A DNA stretch of 64,000 nt from positions 53,451-117,450 of IMG/VR virus record IMGVR_UViG_3300012971_000001. One strand, 5' to 3'. The notes beneath the pieces are model-generated. The model was given only the letters and a program-made list of their open reading frames with translations, was not told the origin of the DNA and searched no databases. Of the stretch, positions 37,643-64,000 are shown in pieces. Position numbers and translations under genes: made by a program. How positions within the stretch are numbered: position 1 is the stretch's first letter; each line of letters opens with the position of its first letter. Origin of the DNA: a virus.

Positions 37643-39142
37643 ATGATGTCTGAAAAGAAGATATCCCGTAATATAGCTAGCTGTACGGGGCTGATTATTT
37701 CGCGATCCCGGCAAACGTATGCTATGATTGCACCTGAACACAAGCGGCATATCGACCTTGAAGACGTAGTCCAGGAGGGCTATATAGCCGCGTTGGAGGC
37801 TGAGGCCTGCTTCCGGCCCCAAGGGGCAAAATTTTCCACGTTCCTATTTAATCGGTTGACGTTTCGGTACAACCACGAGTTTACCGGGAAGCTGACGCAG
37901 CAGAAGCGCACTTCGTATCTGGTCGAGCTCGATGCACCGCTGAGCGAGGACAGCGATCGAAAGCTGGAGCTGACGGATGACACGTTTACACCCGATTCGG
38001 ATGTAGATTGCGTCGAAGGCTTCATTAATGTATGTAGGCTTCTATCACCGGGAGCTGTGGTGTGGTTCATCGGAACGCTAGTGTCTAGCACACAGGAATG
38101 GGAGCGCATGGTTCCTACCAGCGGCGCACGCAGTGAGATACTGAGGAAAGAGGTTGCAGACGCGGTTAAGATGCAGGGGTACAGTAGGGATGACTATAGC
38201 GCATTACGCGGGAGCGAGCGGGCACAAAAAATGGCCTTGATTACTCTTGCACGGAATAGTAGCATTGGCTTGGGCACGGAACGAGATGCCCGGATACTGG
38301 AGTGTGTAGAGTGTCGTGGTCGCTTCGCTTTAGCAGCAATCCGCGCCGGTCGATACGTGGTACAGACCATGACCTGCGTGGCCTGCTATCAACAGATGCG
38401 GAAGGCAGACCCTGAGGAATCCTGTTTTGGCAAGTCAAAGACACCCGAACACGAAGGTTATTCGGAAAAAGATGTCGAGTGCACACTGCACTGTAGAGAC
38501 AGAAAGGTCTGCAGTCAGTTTATTTCAGAGGAGAAAGATACAATGAAGGAAAAGAAGAGCAAGAAGGCTGCAGAGGAAGTCGAGACTCCGGTGGCCGAGG
38601 AAGAAACAAAGAAAAACGGCAGCGGCAAGAAGAGCGCAGCCGCAGCTGCTCCGGCTGCCAAGCCGAGCAAGAAAGCAGCCAAGGTCGAGGTCGAGGAAGA
38701 GGACAGCGAAGACGTCGACATCGAGACCGGGGACGACGACGAGGAAGAGGAAGAGAAGCCCGTTGCTGCGAAAAAGGCAGCGAAGCAGCCCGGCAAGGTC
38801 GCCAAGATGGAGACCAAGACCGAAAAGCCCGCAAAGGCAGCGAAGACCGAGGGCAAGGCAGCTTCCAACGGCAACAAGGAATATCCGGCGCCGAGTGAGG
38901 TGGTCCGGTGGCCGCACAAGACCGGCTCGTGGATGCAGTACTGTTTCCAGCGCGCCTACAAGGGTGTCAAGGCTACCGAGCTGGAGAACGAGACCAACGA
39001 GAGCGGTCGCAAGTGGGCCATCTTTTTGAAGGTGCTCCGCGGCGGCAAGTCCGGTATGAAGCGGCCGACGCATACGTGGCGTCTGGATGAGACCGGCGGA
39101 CGACTCAAGATCGGCGACGTGAAGTATTTGGGCGGTGAATAG
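37643..39142 (+). CDS. Sigma-70 region 2-like factor fused to a Cys-rich domain and a K/A/E-rich tail
   Basis: IDLEDVVQEGYIAALEA..F..GAKFSTF; CVEC, CVAC and C..HC..C; probable internal start at 38543. Confidence 0.75.
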   Translation: MMSEKKISRNIASCTGLIISRSRQTYAMIAPEHKRHIDLEDVVQEGYIAALEAEACFRPQGAKFSTFLFNRLTFRYNHEFTGKLTQQKRTSYLVELDAPLSEDSDRKLELTDDTFTPDSDVDCVEGFINVCRLLSPGAVVWFIGTLVSSTQEWERMVPTSGARSEILRKEVADAVKMQGYSRDDYSALRGSERAQKMALITLARNSSIGLGTERDARILECVECRGRFALAAIRAGRYVVQTMTCVACYQQMRKADPEESCFGKSKTPEHEGYSEKDVECTLHCRDRKVCSQFISEEKDTMKEKKSKKAAEEVETPVAEEETKKNGSGKKSAAAAAPAAKPSKKAAKVEVEEEDSEDVDIETGDDDEEEEEKPVAAKKAAKQPGKVAKMETKTEKPAKAAKTEGKAASNGNKEYPAPSEVVRWPHKTGSWMQYCFQRAYKGVKATELENETNESGRKWAIFLKVLRGGKSGMKRPTHTWRLDETGGRLKIGDVKYLGGE

Positions 39143-39875: not shown

Positions 39876-40850
39876 ATGAAGTTATTTTTCAGCGGCTGGC
39901 AAGCCACTAACAAGCAACGTGAATCAGCAGTGATCAAAGCCGGGGCCATCCGGCATAGATGTTTCTCGTTCGCCATGATTCAGAAGCTGCCCGGACTGCC
40001 ATACTACTTACCGAGGCTGCAAGGTGCTTATGACGCATGTCGCAAGCACGGCATCGGAATCATGTTCGATTCCGGCGTGGTCAGCTGGCGCTCGCACAGG
40101 GCTACATTGCGCAAGCAGGGCAAGGATATCTCCAAGCTGCCGGACGAAAAGACGTTTATCAAGCTGTATGTCGACCATGTGAAGCAGCATAGAAAAGAGT
40201 GGGACAAGGTCGACAGCGGGATGGACTCGATGTATTTCACCATCGACTTGGAACGCAATGCAGAAGATATCTTCCGGCGCCATTACGAGATAGTGAAGAT
40301 GGGAATCAATCCGGTGCCAGTGTTCCACGGCGACAGCTCGCTGGACATACTCAGGCGCTACGCAGACAAGGGCTGCACGCTGATCGGGCTGGCATCGTGG
40401 CGCACCATCAGAACGCAGCAGAAGCAGTTTCGAGCCTACTTCGACGGATGCTTTGACTTGGGTGAAAAGCTTGGCATTCGTTTTCATGGCTTAGCTATGA
40501 CGGCGAGTTGGTTGATGCTAACCTACCCCTGGTATTCCACCGATTCCAGCTCCTGGTCACGCGTGGCAGGCTACGGCTCGATCATGTGGTTCGATGAGCA
40601 CAAGCAGCGGATGAGTGCCTTTCACATCTCAGATAGACATAGCGAAGGCAAAAGCACAGCAGCGAAGATGAATCCTATCATCATGGGCCGTGTGAAAGAA
40701 TGGGTTGAGCATGAGGGCTTTGATTTCAAAGAGCTGCAGACAGACTTTGTTCAGCGTCATATCTGGAATGGCAAGCAAATGCTAAAGCTGGTAGATGCAG
40801 CTGACAAAAGACATAGTAACGGTGTGGGACAATGGCAGTCGCTTTTTTAA
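39876..40850 (+). CDS. dpdA: TGT-like DNA-guanine transglycosylase (DpdA-like)
   Basis: MFDSG, TID, PVPVFHG, FHGLA and PWYSTDSSSW motifs of the TGT fold; clustered with folE and queD. Confidence 0.72.
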   Translation: MKLFFSGWQATNKQRESAVIKAGAIRHRCFSFAMIQKLPGLPYYLPRLQGAYDACRKHGIGIMFDSGVVSWRSHRATLRKQGKDISKLPDEKTFIKLYVDHVKQHRKEWDKVDSGMDSMYFTIDLERNAEDIFRRHYEIVKMGINPVPVFHGDSSLDILRRYADKGCTLIGLASWRTIRTQQKQFRAYFDGCFDLGEKLGIRFHGLAMTASWLMLTYPWYSTDSSSWSRVAGYGSIMWFDEHKQRMSAFHISDRHSEGKSTAAKMNPIIMGRVKEWVEHEGFDFKELQTDFVQRHIWNGKQMLKLVDAADKRHSNGVGQWQSLF

Positions 40851-41428
40851 GGTCAGCTTGGCCTTGGGCTGCTGAACATTTGCCATCATTTTTGGCAAAG
40901 TTTTTGTCGCACGTACAGATTGTAGATGATGCTGATAGTTGCTGGCCTTGGCAAGCTAATAGAGATAGCGATGGTTACGGCTATTGCTCTCTGGTATATG
41001 ATGATTTAGCTTTTTTCAAGGCACATAGAATTTCTCTTTTCCTTGCTAGTGGTGCTGTTAAAGATATTCGTAATGTTGTTAGGCATAGCTGCGATAATCC
41101 GCCTTGTGTGCGTCCAAAGCACTTACTTGAAGGGACGCATCAAGATAATGCTAGGGATCGCGATTCGAGAGGCCGTGCTGCTTGGCAAAATGGGAATGCC
41201 GGATGGCAGATAGATCCAAATTGGAATAGCTGGCTAATCGGAGGTAGGCATGCTCCAAAAGGCGAAGCACACTACAAAGCAACGCTGACAGAGCTACGCG
41301 TCAGATGCATACGAGCTATGCACAGACGTGGCTACGGATATAGACGCTTATCTGTAATATTCTCAGTGCCCAGAGGTACCGTTCGATGTGTAGTTACACG
41401 AAAGAATTGGAAACGCGTTCGTTGGTAA
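40832..41428 (+). CDS. HNH endonuclease with HTH (copy 5, more divergent)
   Basis: CWPW, AHR, RHSCDNPPCVRPKHL..DN, TLTELRVR, RKNWKRV. Confidence 0.9.
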   Translation: MAVAFLRSAWPWAAEHLPSFLAKFLSHVQIVDDADSCWPWQANRDSDGYGYCSLVYDDLAFFKAHRISLFLASGAVKDIRNVVRHSCDNPPCVRPKHLLEGTHQDNARDRDSRGRAAWQNGNAGWQIDPNWNSWLIGGRHAPKGEAHYKATLTELRVRCIRAMHRRGYGYRRLSVIFSVPRGTVRCVVTRKNWKRVRW

Positions 41429-46735: not shown

Positions 46736-47086
46736 ATGGCCAACAAACCCGACACCCAGAAGTCGATAGTCGTCGATGGGATAGTAGCTAGGCGGAACCG
46801 CCAGCCGTACATTCTCCTATTCAAGGGGGATCAGCAAATCGCCCAGTTGACCCTGTCAGAAGCTCGCAACATCGCGAACGACATCCTTATCCAGTGCAGC
46901 CGCATAGAAGCAGATGCCATGATTTTCAAGTTTTTCGAGAAGCATGACCTACCAGAGGGTGCTGCTTCTCAGCTGATGGGCGACTTTCGGATCTTTCGCC
47001 TGGAGTTGGATAAGGATGTAGCTGAGACGTTTGAAAGTGTTCCGTCTGCTGACCAGTTCGACTTTACTAAGAAGAAGCCTCAGTAG
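46736..47086 (+). CDS. Hypothetical protein
   Basis: GAGG SD; 116 aa. Confidence 0.7.
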   Translation: MANKPDTQKSIVVDGIVARRNRQPYILLFKGDQQIAQLTLSEARNIANDILIQCSRIEADAMIFKFFEKHDLPEGAASQLMGDFRIFRLELDKDVAETFESVPSADQFDFTKKKPQ

Positions 47087-47094
47087 GTGTCTCC

Positions 47095-47537
47095 ATGGGA
47101 GCAAAACCGCAGTTCAGTCGCAAGGATCTGGATATCACCACGGCCATGGCAAATTAAAGATGAGGATGCCTGACGGTACGAATGAATGGCAAGCTCATCG
47201 CGCTGCGTACGTTTTGTGGAAAGGGCCTGTACCGCCTGGAAAAATTGTATGCCACGCTAGGGAATGCAGCAATTCGAGCTGCATCTGTCCCGATCATCTG
47301 TATGCTGGCACGCACAAAGAAAATACCGGAGATGCGATGGCGCTAGGCACGATGGTGCTGAATTACAATTTAACGGGCGCACCGCCGCGTGCAAAGCTGA
47401 CTAAATTTCAAGTCCGCGTCATTCGCTGCTTACATAGACGAGGATGGACTTGCTCAGAATTAGCCAGTGAGTTTTGTATGGCGTACGGAACAATTTATTT
47501 ATTGCTTGTCAGACGATCTTGGAAAAATATTCCGTAA
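47095..47537 (+). pseudogene. HNH endonuclease (copy 6), N-terminally deleted/frameshifted
   Basis: SD+ATG 47095 frame stops after 20 aa; the RMPDG..AHR..CICPDHL..RRSWKNI frame lacks the CWLW segment. Confidence 0.7.
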
Positions 47538-52386: not shown

Positions 52387-52929
52387 ATGATGGGAGTGAG
52401 ATTAGGGTTGGGCAGGCACCGCGAAACGGATTTAAAGCGACGATTTTTTAGCCACGTAGATAGAGAATCCTCACCTATAGGTTGCTGGCTGTGGATTGGT
52501 TCCCGCCGTGGAACTAATACGTGCCCTTACGGCGACATACGAATACGAATAGGTGGTAAGCTAGAACGCTGTGCCCATCGCATATCGTACATTTGGTTTG
52601 TTGGGCCGGTGCCAGACGACTTGCTGGTCTTGCATAAGCCATTCTGCAATAATCCACTTTGTGTAAATCCTGCTCACCTGTATTTAGGCACCTATAAGCA
52701 AAACATGGCTGATATGATCGGACTAGGCCATCATATATCCAGATTGCATCCAGAAAAGATATGTCGTGGTGAACAGGTAGGTGCTTCCAAAATGACAGCT
52801 TTTAAAGTTAGAATAGCTCGCTCACTATACCGACGAGGTATGGGCAGATCGACGATAGCGAAGTTGATGGGGATTCACTACAATACACTGACGGCGATTG
52901 TTCACTTTAAAACTTGGCAGCATATATGA
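52387..52929 (+). CDS. HNH endonuclease with HTH (copy 7)
   Basis: DRESSPIGCWLW, CNNPLCVNPAHL..N, KTWQHI. Confidence 0.9.
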   Translation: MMGVRLGLGRHRETDLKRRFFSHVDRESSPIGCWLWIGSRRGTNTCPYGDIRIRIGGKLERCAHRISYIWFVGPVPDDLLVLHKPFCNNPLCVNPAHLYLGTYKQNMADMIGLGHHISRLHPEKICRGEQVGASKMTAFKVRIARSLYRRGMGRSTIAKLMGIHYNTLTAIVHFKTWQHI

Positions 52930-59767: not shown

Positions 59768-59801
59768 AGGGCGGGCGGGCACGACCCGCCCTGAAGGAGA
59801 T

Positions 59802-60011
59802 ATGAGACATTTCAAGCTAGTGCAAGTGCAGCGTGTCCCGCCACATCGGGTGCTGCTGGAGTTCGACCGTGCCACTGAGGTGTCTGCCGTAGGCTACGCC
59901 GAGAAAGAAGCCAGTTTTCGGAACCTGAACGGCGAGCTGGAGCTATGGGAAACCGTTGACCAGAAGGACCACCTGATATCGCGCGTGGTTCCTAAAAGGA
60001 AGAACAGATGA
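59802..60011 (+). CDS. Small hypothetical protein
   Basis: AAGGAG SD. Confidence 0.65.
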   Translation: MRHFKLVQVQRVPPHRVLLEFDRATEVSAVGYAEKEASFRNLNGELELWETVDQKDHLISRVVPKRKNR

Positions 60012-60057
60012 AGAGATTATCAGTAAAGCAGGTGCTGCTGCGGTAGCGTAAGATTTC

Positions 60058-60087
60058 TTGCGCACACGTTCTAACCTGTGTTAGACT
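60058..60087 (+). promoter_or_regulatory. Promoter with dyad operator (copy B)
   Basis: TTGCGC-18-TAGACT; CACACGTT-ct-AACCTGTG. Confidence 0.8.
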
Positions 60088-60104
60088 TCAGTTATGGAGA
60101 TCAA

Positions 60105-60809
60105 ATGAGCAGACGACATATATTCGATCCAATCGCAGAGGCACACAGGTTCCGGTACATTGCCACAGACCCGCTGGAGTTCTCTCTGCAAAACACACCG
60201 ATCAGCCGCGGCTTCCGGTACTATGAGACGTTGGGCGACAAATCGACGGCCCACACACCGGATATGCCGCTGCCAATACAGCTGCTGCCGGACTATCTGT
60301 ACTCGCTGGCTGCGGCAATCCAAACGAACCCGGAGATCATCGATACGATCGGCTACGACCTTCGCTGTCCGGTAGACGAGCAGGACATGGAATTCGCCGA
60401 GGGCATTGGGTACAACAGCGAGAAGGTTCGCTACTTCAACCTGAAGGAGAGGAAGGTATCCTCAACGCCTAGCAAACGCTTTGACAAGCGCTGGGAAGAA
60501 ATCAAGTCCTACATGGACGGGACACCGCTGGGGATGTTCCACGTGCTGGTGAAGGACCACTACAGCGGTATCCAGAAATTCGTGCTGATGTACGAAATCC
60601 TGGATTACCTGCGGCGCAGGCATTCCGCCATGTATGGGCAGTACGCTGCGCAGATGCTGAAGTGGGATGGTGTGTCCTATTCCGAGCTCGACAACGCATA
60701 TGCTACGGTCCGCTATGCTCTAAGGGCCAACGAGGCAGCACACGCAGTGCAGCGGCTGGTCAAGCGTTACCGTGAGTCGCTGGAAGAAAAGACCGAGGTG
60801 ACAGCGTAG
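60105..60809 (+). CDS. Hypothetical early protein
   Basis: GGAG SD after promoter B. Confidence 0.7.
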   Translation: MSRRHIFDPIAEAHRFRYIATDPLEFSLQNTPISRGFRYYETLGDKSTAHTPDMPLPIQLLPDYLYSLAAAIQTNPEIIDTIGYDLRCPVDEQDMEFAEGIGYNSEKVRYFNLKERKVSSTPSKRFDKRWEEIKSYMDGTPLGMFHVLVKDHYSGIQKFVLMYEILDYLRRRHSAMYGQYAAQMLKWDGVSYSELDNAYATVRYALRANEAAHAVQRLVKRYRESLEEKTEVTA

Positions 60810-60857
60810 GGTCTGTGGTTCCGGTAGCCCGCCAGCGATAGTGCCTGAAGGAGGAAA

Positions 60858-61205
60858 ATGAGCAAGAAAATAAATCCTATGCGGCCTGCGAACCTGCAAG
60901 ACATCGTTCCCGGCTGGATATACGAGATCGTGATGGACTGGCGGCAGACAGCCGCGTCGGCACCTGTGGATTATCGCACGGGAAAGCCAAATCCGAAAGG
61001 GGAAGACTGCGTTCATCTGACATACGCCAACACGCTTGGCGATGCGCGCTTCGAGCTAGAAATACAGGCAGAACGCTACTTAAACACTCATCAGCAACTG
61101 CTCCGAAGGATGGGACCGAACAGGTATCATGGCAACGACGGTGACACGATTGTGAACCTCAGTATCATTGCCGTGCAGGATTCCGAGACGAAAGAAAATA
61201 TATGA
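60858..61205 (+). CDS. Hypothetical protein
   Basis: AGGAGG SD. Confidence 0.7.
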   Translation: MSKKINPMRPANLQDIVPGWIYEIVMDWRQTAASAPVDYRTGKPNPKGEDCVHLTYANTLGDARFELEIQAERYLNTHQQLLRRMGPNRYHGNDGDTIVNLSIIAVQDSETKENI

Positions 61206-61447
61206 AAGAGATTACACAGGCCCAGTTCGAGCAGCTGATAAAGCGTGCCTGGGCTGCTTATGACAGATTTGAGAAAAAGGCTGTGTACAAAGATGGCAAC
61301 TCGCACGACTTGGAAAAAGGCCAGGACGAGTGGGACAAGTACGCGAATCTGATGCAGCAGGTAGAAGGCTGGCGGGATAGCCATTTTCCGTGGTGGGAAA
61401 AGCACAATGGGAAAATTGGGTTACCGATGATGCGAGAAAAAAGTTGA
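61202..61447 (+). CDS. Hypothetical protein
   Basis: ATGA coupling. Confidence 0.65.
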   Translation: MKEITQAQFEQLIKRAWAAYDRFEKKAVYKDGNSHDLEKGQDEWDKYANLMQQVEGWRDSHFPWWEKHNGKIGLPMMREKS

Positions 61448-61454
61448 TTCGGAC

Positions 61455-61484
61455 TTGCGCACGATTTCAAACCCGTGTTAGACT
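61455..61484 (+). promoter_or_regulatory. Promoter with dyad operator (copy C), leaderless
   Basis: TTGCGC-18-TAGACT-6-ATG; CACGATTT-ca-AACCCGTG. Confidence 0.85.
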
Positions 61485-61490
61485 TCAGTC

Positions 61491-61697
61491 ATGGCAGCAA
61501 AAAATTTAGCAGAATTAGAAGACAACATGGCGCGGAAGTTCGGCAACGGGACACCGGCGTCGGACGCGGAGATCAAGCGTGGCCTACGCCTAATCAAGCG
61601 CCACATCACGTTCGAGAAGAACGCGCAGAACGAGGACCTGCACAAGGCCATCAGCATCCTGGTCGACGAGTTCCGAAGATTGGGGCGGTTGAAATGA
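61491..61697 (+). CDS. Small hypothetical protein (leaderless)
   Basis: ATG 6 nt after the -10 box. Confidence 0.7.
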   Translation: MAAKNLAELEDNMARKFGNGTPASDAEIKRGLRLIKRHITFEKNAQNEDLHKAISILVDEFRRLGRLK

Positions 61698-61915
61698 TCC
61701 GGGTGTATTTTACCAATCACTTCTACTACGCCGACCGGGAATTCGCCACGCTCGACGAAGCCGTGGCCTATGCGAAGTCGGTTTGCTTCCAGGTGAGCTT
61801 CTGGCAGCCGTTGCCAGGGCCGGGGAACCCGGAAGAGTTTCTGGGCAGCTGGTGCCCCATCGGCGGGCTGAGGCTGCAGGACGCAGCAAAGGAGCTGTTA
61901 TGCATGCACAAGTAA
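61694..61915 (+). CDS. Small hypothetical protein
   Basis: ATGA coupling; FATLDEAVAYAK. Confidence 0.65.
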   Translation: MIRVYFTNHFYYADREFATLDEAVAYAKSVCFQVSFWQPLPGPGNPEEFLGSWCPIGGLRLQDAAKELLCMHK

Positions 61916-62208
61916 TATTGCCGGGCGTGACTCTGGTCTGCAAGGTGGTCATTACGCTAAGCCCGGAAGACTGGGGCCTGTACGAGTACCTGCCGCTGTG
62001 CGGGCGGTTCGTCAACGACCTGAACCAAACGCTCGAGAAGAGCTTCAACAATGGCGCCAGCAAGGTAGAAGCACAACAGCAGGCGCTCCAGCTGATGCAG
62101 GTGAGCAGGGAATATGGCGCCATGGAAGAAGGGCCGCAGCACGTCCTGAAAACGCTGCTGGACAAGCTGTACGCGCTGGACGAGTATAATTACCTGAGCA
62201 GGATGTGA
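61900..62208 (+). CDS. Hypothetical protein
   Basis: AGGAG SD. Confidence 0.65.
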   Translation: MHAQVILPGVTLVCKVVITLSPEDWGLYEYLPLCGRFVNDLNQTLEKSFNNGASKVEAQQQALQLMQVSREYGAMEEGPQHVLKTLLDKLYALDEYNYLSRM

Positions 62209-62210
62209 AA

Positions 62211-62528
62211 ATGACAAAACTGAAATACGAAATCTGGTCGAACGTCGCAGAAGATCCGATGAGGTTTTTCAACGGCTATCGCCAGGGAAATCCGATGAAG
62301 AAATCCTGGGAGGGCGAGCTGGAGGTAGACCAGAAAATAGAGACCGATGACCAGCTGGAGTGCCTGTTCATGAAATTCAACATGGACAACAGACCGAACG
62401 GGAAGGTTGCCCATAGCCTGTCAGTCGGAGATGTGGTGGTGCTAGACGGCAAGGCATACGCGGTTCAGATGATGGGCTTCACGCCGGTGCCTGGTCTGTT
62501 CAAGCCGGTGATTGGCGACTACGCCTAA
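62211..62528 (+). CDS. YodL-like domain protein
   Basis: LECLFMKFN..RP..HSLSVGDVVVL..AY.V..GF. Confidence 0.7.
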   Translation: MTKLKYEIWSNVAEDPMRFFNGYRQGNPMKKSWEGELEVDQKIETDDQLECLFMKFNMDNRPNGKVAHSLSVGDVVVLDGKAYAVQMMGFTPVPGLFKPVIGDYA

Positions 62529-62529
62529 G

Positions 62530-62725
62530 GGCAGTGTGGAAGAAATCTTCCACTACGGTGCAGTAGACATGGTGCCCGGTGAGACGCCGGTGACGCGGTG
62601 TTTTCAGCTATCTGTTTCGGTGCCGGTAGCTGGTTTGGTCCGCTCATGAAACATCTACTGCACCGTAGTAGGAGATTTTCATCAGTGCGTCACCGGGGCA
62701 GCTTTCGGGCTGTCCCGGTTTTTTT
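62530..62725 (+). ncRNA. Candidate structured RNA with 16-bp closing stem, alternative pairing and terminator
   Basis: 62552-67 and 62654-69 form a perfect inverted repeat; 62587-96 and 62687-96 are complementary; terminator 62693-62725. Confidence 0.6.
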
Positions 62726-62746
62726 GTGATTTTCTGAAATTTGGAC

Positions 62747-62775
62747 TTGCGCACAGGTTTCAACCCGTGTAAACT
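62747..62775 (+). promoter_or_regulatory. Promoter with dyad operator (copy D), leaderless
   Basis: TTGCGC-17-TAAACT-6-ATG; CACAGGTT-tc-AACCCGTG. Confidence 0.85.
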
Positions 62776-62781
62776 CAGATC

Positions 62782-63135
62782 ATGGTTGACAAATTCAAAC
62801 CCAAAACGTACAAGACAAAAGAAAAAGCAGCAGCAGCGCTGGGGATCACGGTCGCCCAGCTTGACGTCGTCGGGCGTGGCGCCTGGATGGTGTATCAGGA
62901 GGTCGGCTATGACCTGGCCGAGCTGAACGGCGGCCGCGGCATTCCGCGGAACGAAGTGATCGAAGTGGTCCTGGACGCCGGCCGCCTGGAGCAGCTCCTG
63001 CAGCAGAAAGCGAAGTACTTGCGGGCAGACGAAGCCGACGTAAAGGCAGCAGTCGCGGTGCTCAGCAAGCATGACCACTACGCCGAGCTGTGTGGCGCCA
63101 TGAGGCTCTACTTCACCGCAAAGAGGTACGAATAA
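62782..63135 (+). CDS. Hypothetical early protein (leaderless)
   Basis: ATG 6 nt after the -10 box. Confidence 0.75.
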   Translation: MVDKFKPKTYKTKEKAAAALGITVAQLDVVGRGAWMVYQEVGYDLAELNGGRGIPRNEVIEVVLDAGRLEQLLQQKAKYLRADEADVKAAVAVLSKHDHYAELCGAMRLYFTAKRYE

Positions 63136-63515
63136 TGCAGGCAGGCGACAAGATTTACACGGTAGAGTACGGCAACCACGACCCGAGCTTTAACGTCGTG
63201 ACGGTGACCAAGATCACGCCCAAGGGCACGGTCGAGGTCGAATGGGCGTCGGGCACACGCTCGCGCTTCAACAAGGACGGCAGGGAGATCGGCGAGAAGG
63301 GCTACTTCCGGCGCGAGCTGGATCGCGTGCCGTTCGCAGAGCGGCAGGCACTACTCGCCCAGCTGCAACGCACCAAAGCCGCGTCAGCCGCGGTGAAGCA
63401 GGTGATGGTCGAAAGCAGCCTGAATTTCCGGTGGGGCAAAGAAGGCATGGAAAAAGAGCTGGCCCGGCTGCAGGCGCTGCTCGATGAAGCAAAAGCCGCC
63501 GTTGGCGCCATATAG
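63135..63515 (+). CDS. Hypothetical protein
   Basis: GAGG SD, TAATG coupling; VTKITPKG..RFNKDGRE beta-barrel-like pattern. Confidence 0.7.
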   Translation: MQAGDKIYTVEYGNHDPSFNVVTVTKITPKGTVEVEWASGTRSRFNKDGREIGEKGYFRRELDRVPFAERQALLAQLQRTKAASAAVKQVMVESSLNFRWGKEGMEKELARLQALLDEAKAAVGAI

Positions 63516-63546
63516 AAAATTTTCGAAAAATAATCGGGTTTCGGAC

Positions 63547-63575
63547 TTGCGCACGGTTCGAAACCCGTGTAAATT
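63547..63575 (+). promoter_or_regulatory. Promoter with dyad operator (copy E), leaderless
   Basis: TTGCGC-17-TAAATT-6-ATG; CACGGTTC-ga-AACCCGTG. Confidence 0.85.
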
Positions 63576-63581
63576 TAGACC

Positions 63582-64000
63582 ATGGACAGCAAAATTAATC
63601 AGTTGAAACAAGTGCTACCGCAGCTCGGCGCCAGCGATCAGAAATTCGCCAACGACCTCATCAGCGGCCCATTCGGCTACGAGAAGCGCGGGACGCTCTC
63701 AGCCAAGCAGTGGCCGTGGGTCGATAAGCTCATCGCCCGTGCCACCGCTCCCAAGCCGGAGCAGAAGAAGATCGACGTCGGCAGCATGGCGGGCGTGATC
63801 GCGCTCTTCAAGAAGGCCCAGGAGAAGCTGAAGCATCCGAAGATCGTGCTATCGCTGAACGGCGAGCCGATCACGCACGCAGTCGCCGGTCCCGGCAGCA
63901 AGGCTCCTGGCAGCATTAACGTTATGGGCGAGGGGAAATACCCCACGCGGGAATGGTTCGGCCGCATCTCGCCGGAAGGGCAGTGGGCGCCGTCGGGCAG
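63582..64000 (+). CDS. Hypothetical protein (runs off the window)
   Basis: Open frame MDSKINQLK..FANDL..LSAKQWPWV..WFGRI; absent from the ORF track because there is no stop in the window. Confidence 0.8.
   Translation, partial: MDSKINQLKQVLPQLGASDQKFANDLISGPFGYEKRGTLSAKQWPWVDKLIARATAPKPEQKKIDVGSMAGVIALFKKAQEKLKHPKIVLSLNGEPITHAVAGPGSKAPGSINVMGEGKYPTREWFGRISPEGQWAPSG

Follow-up and report, generated by a model that had tools for sequence, protein, structure and literature searches.

A probable conserved structured RNA behind a YodL-like gene of a soil metagenome phage

What is the long inverted repeat that lies between two small genes close to the end of this phage record? An earlier note, made from the letters of the DNA, had seen in it a novel non-coding RNA of the early region, a decoy or a switchable attenuator. 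To our knowledge, few structured phage RNAs have been described, and almost none of them come from uncultured soil phages. The window, by which we mean the whole stretch of DNA that was analysed, is the last 64 kb (bases 53451–117450) of a complete phage record of 117,450 bp (CheckV) with a 123-bp end repeat typical of a circular assembly; positions are those of the window unless stated otherwise. Near-identical DNA was found only in soil metagenome runs. Among 50,697 phage records, none matches the family A DNA polymerase of the phage at more than 26% identity, and IMG/VR and JGI contigs scanned with single phage proteins yielded no close relative; judged by these comparisons, the phage is remote from anything described. 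All 145 called ORFs are on the + strand, the only strand scanned.

The repeat is part of an element of ~136 nt on the + strand (62543–62678), located 1.3 kb from the record end among a series of small genes. Its closing helix, ~28 bp long and near-perfect, ends in a three-way junction with two hairpins, P2 and P3. P1a (8 bp) pairs 62543–62550 with 62671–62678; P1b, a perfect 16-bp stem, pairs ACTACGGTGCAGTAGA (62552–62567) with TCTACTGCACCGTAGT (62654–62669); P1c adds 4 bp, CATG (62568–62571) with CATG (62645–62648), opposite a 5-nt bulge, AAACA. One C/A mismatch separates P1a from P1b. The earlier note had described the 16-bp stem, which is present and is extended to ~28 bp by P1a and P1c, as well as the enclosed sub-hairpins, which are found in their places: P2 is CCGGTG-AGA-CGCCGG with an AGA triloop (62576–62590), and P3 (CAGCTATC..GGTAGCTG, within 62604–62633) has a 9-bp stem. 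The competing hairpin claimed for the 5′ end could also be recovered (GTGGAAGAAATCTTCCAC, 62536–62553, + strand, −10.1 kcal/mol); it overlaps the 5′ strand of P1a.

The fold is far more stable than expected by chance. The 206-nt segment 62525–62730 has a minimum free energy (MFE) of −100.8 kcal/mol vs −67.2 ± 4.3 kcal/mol for shuffled sequences (z = −7.83), and 0 of 200 shuffles were as low. The whole 117-kb genome contains 20 perfect inverted repeats when arms down to 11 nt and loops up to 400 nt are admitted; arms of at least 16 nt are seen in two of them, one being the element, which is single-copy in the genome.

Immediately upstream lies a gene of 107 aa (62205–62528, + strand; stop codon TAA at 62526–62528) whose product matches the Pfam domain YodL (PF14191, E = 3.9e-06, 28.2 bits vs a cut-off of 24). 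A passage of PMC5512222 links the YodL domain to MreB and cell shape. YodL-like matches in human faecal phage records are domains within larger proteins, and no similar element follows them. On the other side, after a gap of ~9–13 nt, comes an intrinsic terminator, ACCGGGGCAGCT-TTCG-GGCTGTCCCGGT with a T run (62692–62725, + strand), with a 12-bp stem (62692–62719), a UUCG loop and −22.9 kcal/mol. It is the only strong terminator-like site found by a scan of 59800–64000.

The terminator is followed by a promoter cassette (62741–62784, + strand) with −35 TTGCGC, a 17-nt partly palindromic spacer and −10 TAAACT. The ATG of a 117-aa gene is only 6 nt past this −10, so the mRNA of this gene is probably leaderless. 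The cassette (~45 nt) consists of an A/T-rich tract, GGACTTGCGCAC, a spacer CAC.GGTTT..AAACC.GTG and a −10 box TAAACT or TAGACT, and it occurs at seven genome sites (−35 starts at window positions 60058, 61455, 62747 and 63547, and at genome positions 1061, 6104 and 28908). An ATG stands 6–7 nt past the −10, and at five of the seven sites a called ORF begins with it (Ku, 70 aa, 68 aa, 117 aa and 139+ aa, all on the + strand); given this distance, cassette-driven early mRNAs would be leaderless. Since the cassette fits a sigma-70-type consensus, we take the genes behind it to be early ones that the host polymerase transcribes. An operator function is conceivable for the palindromic spacer. At 63523–63579 the Rfam model ‘mir-981’ gave a match, which is the palindrome of one such cassette.

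A single homolog of the element was found. The protein encoded downstream of the element has one relative, with 64% identity, in a collection of 5.8 billion proteins, and alignment of this pair pulled out a 3,360-bp JGI metagenome contig (L031), in which the gene order is rearranged relative to the window. At the 5′ end of the contig a YodL-like gene is represented by its final 20 codons (..IGDYA*), and the element homolog comes next; the promoter cassette is present too (at ~2833), ahead of the homologous gene. A covariance model made from the window sequence alone detected the homolog at L031:74–206 with 71.8 bits and E ~6e-18. Its fold is also unusually stable (z = −5.05; 0 of 200 shuffles as low). 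Over the element the two sequences agree in 82 of 140 columns, and over the adjacent coding tail in 45 of 69.

In the structure-fitted alignment of the two sequences, standard pairs fill 87 of 88 cells, and both partners have changed in 12 of 45 pairs, so the covariation in homologs that the earlier note expected of a genuine RNA is there in the one homolog found. Five measures of covariation were computed, and 0 of 500 shuffles reached any of them; when the 3′ partners were slid by 1–3 columns, pairing fell to 28–51% of cells with 0–2 double changes. The closing helix of L031 has 7 bp, a mismatch, 17 bp and 4 bp. Among the eight pairs of P1a, three show double changes, one is changed on one side and one is unpaired. 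P1b has three double changes (U-A to C-G, A-U to G-C and G-C to A-U), also seen in an unfitted MAFFT alignment with the pair table, and one change of G-C to G-U. P2 of L031 is GCAGCG-AGA-CGCTGC, with two double changes (C-G to G-C and G-C to A-U), one one-sided change and the AGA loop kept; these changes were read from the sequences, as MAFFT misplaces a gap in the 3′ arm. P3 is a 7-bp stem of different sequence with four double changes. The counts for P3 and P1a were made on the structure-fitted, i.e. model-fitted, alignment. The fold is kept by compensatory changes between two sequences only, which is strong evidence for a sample of this size, and thin. In our view the element is very probably a genuine and conserved structured RNA; its architecture is clear, and the covariation is visible from two sequences alone.

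Conservation is unevenly distributed along the element. Alignment columns 16–33 are identical in 18 of 18 positions and columns 103–111 in nine of nine. The invariant parts are the top ten pairs of P1b, P1c, the GUGC junction and the AAACA bulge: the 5′ strand of P1c with the junction GTGC (62568–62575) is identical in eight of eight columns, and the 3′ strand CATG with the bulge (62645–62653) in nine of nine. In P1a, the lower six pairs of P1b and P3, pairing is kept and the sequence differs. Eight of the 14 lower pairs of P1 vary vs one of the 14 upper pairs (Fisher p = 0.013).

The YodL-like gene is upstream in both phages, its stop codon separated from P1a by 14 nt (window) or 12 nt (L031); the link of the element to the YodL-like stop codon is conserved. 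A distance of 12–14 nt past a stop codon is just beyond the cover of a terminating ribosome. Downstream, the window has the terminator and then the promoter; in L031 the next feature, ~30 nt on, is a gene that has a Shine-Dalgarno sequence and codes for a signal peptide. No terminator follows the element in L031, and the terminator is outside the conserved unit. At the place of the 5′ competitor hairpin L031 has a different small hairpin, CCCG-AAGA-CGGG. The fixed position of the element is behind the gene for a putative host-cytoskeleton-targeting (YodL-like) protein.

Further searches were made for additional members. Three remoter relatives (G001–G003), 49–53% identical in a neighbouring protein, have neither the element nor the YodL-like gene, and G001 lacks a promoter cassette of this type as well as any comparable long inverted repeat. 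The flanking proteins, the DNA polymerase and SbcCD, used as single queries against viral and metagenome contigs, found no relatives, and blastn of the element and of 2.5 kb of its surroundings against the 50,697 phage records gave no real match. Weak blastn matches in two contigs (L033 and L034) are within a tail-fibre coding region; matches in plasmids are 30-nt chance matches within dehydrogenase genes only. A 16-mer seed from the stem hit 16 loci in viral contigs, all of them single-arm chance matches, and the promoter pattern hit five, none related by tblastx. Conserved-block patterns gave 0 loci in viral contigs and, in genome contigs, 0 and then five, none of which was accepted by the covariance model built from both sequences (R2). 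This model can be used directly for finding members in larger metagenome assemblies. Contigs of four soil runs covering 62100–63000 show no substitutions (several runs had no coverage of the element), and the sole difference is a TT insertion in the terminator T run (62718) in one contig of soil run X8; because substitutions are absent, these population variants are uninformative on covariation.

We compared the element with known RNA families. Rfam 15, searched on both strands of both phages, gave no family at gathering score over the element; the best matches were chance-level microRNA and sRNA models with 13–18 bits vs gathering scores of 46–80. The element is absent from Rfam 15, which we do not extend to absence from print. 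Together with the fold kept in the homolog, this result agrees with the earlier proposal of a novel non-coding RNA in the early region. ARAGORN found no tRNA and no tmRNA in the window. A loose likeness to retrons had been proposed on the grounds of the enclosing inverted repeat, with the remark that the window contains no reverse transcriptase. The remark extends to the whole genome, as a six-frame search of all 117,450 bp with RVT_1 (PF00078) gave 0 matches (in a control, the same search gave matches in three of 14 genomes), and the likeness itself was given up because the genome has no reverse transcriptase. Inverted repeats around a structured non-coding region are indeed shared with retron msr-msd, and the 16-bp repeat could pass for the flanking a1/a2 repeats, a feature that alone is not specific; in contrast to retrons, the element has no reverse transcriptase in the genome and no adjacent effector, and its downstream neighbours differ between the phages.

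What might such an RNA do? Because the lower helix covaries freely, the upper helix and the junction are invariant and the element is located past a stop codon, we read it as a processing stalk with a conserved core. On this reading an early operon, transcribed from the promoter at 61455 through three small genes, the last of them YodL-like, would end with the element as its 3′ tail. The coaxial helix of P1a and P1b (24–25 bp with one mismatch) would serve as a substrate of host RNase III. A cut in this helix would separate the YodL-like message from downstream RNA and would leave the sequence-conserved upper part as a stable small RNA of ~105 nt, made up of P2, P3 and the GUGC junction together with P1c, the AAACA bulge and the upper 10 bp of P1b. 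The invariant junction would most likely be a protein-binding site. We tentatively prefer this reading, in which a co-transcribed RNA has its stalk cut by host RNase III and its conserved core persists as a small RNA, and regard it as plausible at somewhat below an even chance. If the core turns out to be a stable protein-binding RNA, it would represent a new RNA family in phage early host takeover.

RNase III cleaves dsRNA helices about two turns long; the early mRNAs of phage T7 and lambda sib are processed by this enzyme, and rRNA precursors are cut out of long flanking stems. About two turns of coaxial dsRNA are predicted in the folds of both the window element and L031. With the T7 R sites and lambda sib the element has in common a long, pairing-conserved helix directly past a coding region, between cistrons or in the 3′ UTR, in a phage early transcript, and its modelled coaxial helix of 24–25 bp appears long enough for RNase III. 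The element differs in that its helix closes a three-way junction with an invariant core and not a plain loop or an internal bubble; it is related to them neither in sequence nor through Rfam, and its cleavage by RNase III is putative. A variable, covarying stalk around a conserved core is also seen in rRNA precursor stems and in the P1 c4 and P4 CI RNAs, the latter two of which are matured by RNase P. No RNase III domain was found in the phage genome, and Pfam scans of 121 of the 145 called ORFs showed no obvious RNA-binding partner.

The phage has a second intergenic long-stem element at L029:10112–10204 (genome 30112–30204), flanked by a 54-aa ORF on one side and by the beginning of the structural module on the other. 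Perfect arms of 19 bp enclose a 55-nt interior with small hairpins (z = −4.87). In sequence this element shows no similarity to the first one, and the R2 model does not match it. Two stalked elements in one phage suggest that stalks are used repeatedly, which fits a general role in processing. The preferred model of stalk and core is nevertheless a compromise, because a plain RNase III site needs no invariant junction and a trans-acting RNA needs no proximity to a stop codon.

One rival explanation is that the element is purely a cis-acting 3′ stabiliser or retroregulator of the YodL-like mRNA with no functional RNA product. The helix would stop 3′ exonucleases or, if cut by RNase III, would trigger upstream decay as lambda sib does, and in this way it would set the dose of a YodL-like protein that modifies cell shape and is possibly toxic. 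The link to the YodL-like stop codon, kept in both phages while the downstream neighbour differs, is what such a regulator would show, as are the stop-to-helix spacer of 12–14 nt and the reported connection of the YodL domain with MreB and cell shape. Two observations speak against it: a simple exonuclease barrier does not predict an invariant junction and upper helix next to a variable lower helix, and in the window the 3′ end is already guarded by the strong terminator hairpin. We rate this explanation as possible and less than likely. If the element is a processing or stability hairpin only, it is an ordinary, though elaborate, case of a known strategy.

A further reading is a trans-acting early phage RNA that is cut out via the stalk. 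Such an RNA may act as a decoy that titrates a host defence or RNA-processing factor, or, in the window phage, its pairing with 62687–62696 may time read-through into the early unit that follows. We find this doubtful overall; if true, phage regulatory RNAs would gain a new class. A comparison can be made with Y RNA and YrlA bound to Ro60 (Rsr), in which, as in the element, a long conserved end-to-end stem with a bulge closes a multi-branched module. The element differs from them by the absence of a TROVE protein in the phage, of an Rfam match to Y RNA or YrlA and of a tRNA-like module (ARAGORN). The TROVE domain (PF05731) gave 0 matches in the phage genome, which leaves room for a host-encoded Ro protein.

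The pairing behind the second variant was a claim of the earlier note, which had proposed a terminator/antiterminator or pseudoknot switch. The complementarity itself is present: CCGGTGACGC (62587–62596), inside the element, is the complement of GCGTCACCGG (62687–62696, + strand), which overlaps the 5′ arm of the terminator by 5 nt. A match of 10 nt is uncommon, being reached in only three of 2000 mononucleotide shuffles, and six of the ten nucleotides are in the unpaired junction J2/3. As an attenuator, CCGGUGACGC (62587–62596) would pair with GCGUCACCGG (62687–62696), either as a pseudoknot in cis or in trans after processing, comparable to the co-transcribed antisense RNAs P1 c4 and P4 CI; the terminator would be weakened, and transcription could run on into the early unit behind it. 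With these two RNAs the element shares a core segment complementary to a downstream site in the same transcript; unlike them it does not match their Rfam family, and the complementarity is window-specific. In L031 the best complementarity between the interior and the downstream sequence is 6 nt, a chance-level result reached in 435 of 1000 shuffles, although one of the two 6-nt matches involves the homologous 3′ arm of P2.

Energies also argue against the switch. In the window, a nested alternative fold has −52.0 vs −100.8 kcal/mol, a cost of ~49 kcal/mol, and the pairing of 62587–62596 with 62687–62696 is possible only as a pseudoknot, the state of which (~−92 kcal/mol with nine of ten pairs counted) is ~7–9 kcal/mol above the MFE before any loop penalty. 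The alternative fold expected of an attenuator is therefore not energetically competitive. Moreover, the unit downstream is served by a separate promoter and starts with a probably leaderless gene, for which read-through would bring little, and no Rfam match to C4 or to any riboswitch was seen. Because L031 has neither the terminator nor a significant long-range pairing, the switch is not conserved; we consider it improbable for this element.

Antitermination in cis of the type of HK022 put, in which a folded RNA binds its own RNA polymerase and carries the polymerase through a terminator, seems a little less probable still. An RNA with an invariant core, placed in an early transcript of the host polymerase right before a terminator, would suit such a role, and no phage protein would be required. 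The architecture is, however, unlike put, which consists of two adjacent stem-loops without a long closing helix; the 28-bp helix is superfluous for antitermination, and the next terminator of L031 is ~2.4 kb off, past another promoter.

The remaining question is whether the repeat works as RNA or as DNA. The element acts on the + (sense) strand. G-U pairs occur in both sequences (the top G-C of P1b becomes G-U in L031, and P2 of the window has a U-G pair); since they would be A-C mismatches on the other strand, they favour a + strand RNA and argue against plain DNA-level homogenisation of palindrome arms. The two-sequence model R2 scored 158.5 and 137.7 bits on the + strand vs 40.9 and 33.0 bits on the − strand, a comparison biased by the building of the model from the + strand. 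Minus-strand ORFs of 40 and 41 aa run across the element in both phages; the only six residues that their peptides have in common are encoded by the invariant block, which is entered from different frames relative to the start codons. We treat these ORFs as coincidence. A DNA-level palindrome (a site of replication or recombination, or a miniature inverted-repeat mobile element) or a minus-strand small ORF is highly improbable, the perfect 16-bp repeat in a phage with several HNH homing endonucleases and a fused SbcCD-like nuclease being outweighed by the G-U pairs, by the one genome copy with no target-site duplication seen and by the + strand location of all other called genes (in a scan of the + strand only).

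Three smaller candidates were set aside. Stop-codon read-through with an in-frame extension of the YodL-like protein was rejected, as the peptides share invariant-block residues only and their ends differ. A hammerhead-like CUGAUGA on the minus strand is not kept in L031 and has no Rfam match. Self-pairing of the arms in the manner of Cas12a repeats (CUAC..GUAG) is not kept in L031 either.

Several other genes deserve mention. A 499-aa protein (37643–39142) has a sigma-70 region 2 match (E = 6.4e-07) and may, as a phage sigma factor, direct middle or late transcription. A leaderless early gene outside the window (genome, L028:1096–1881) encodes a Ku70/80-type protein (PF02735, E = 2.6e-41) and has a DUF932 neighbour; it hints at end protection or NHEJ-type handling of phage DNA ends. 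The segment 52914–55733 is one 939-aa ORF with PHROG matches to SbcD-like (residues 28–330) and SbcC-like (residues 360–938) proteins, by which it is classified as a fused palindrome-specific nuclease. Four free-standing HNH_3 homing-endonuclease-like genes (40832–41428, 47031–47537 and 52387–52929 in the window, and L028:16494–17009) are dispersed over the replication module and the early region. By tblastx the window phage has no counterpart of the 167-aa glycine-rich signal-peptide protein of L031 (237–740); its gene may be a moron and would in that case speak for a Gram-negative host. Finally, the portal protein, encoded outside the window (L029:13411–16872), has 1,153 aa with the portal domain at residues 744–892 only and a weak LAGLIDADG match at residues 629–670, which suggests an intein or other large insertion.
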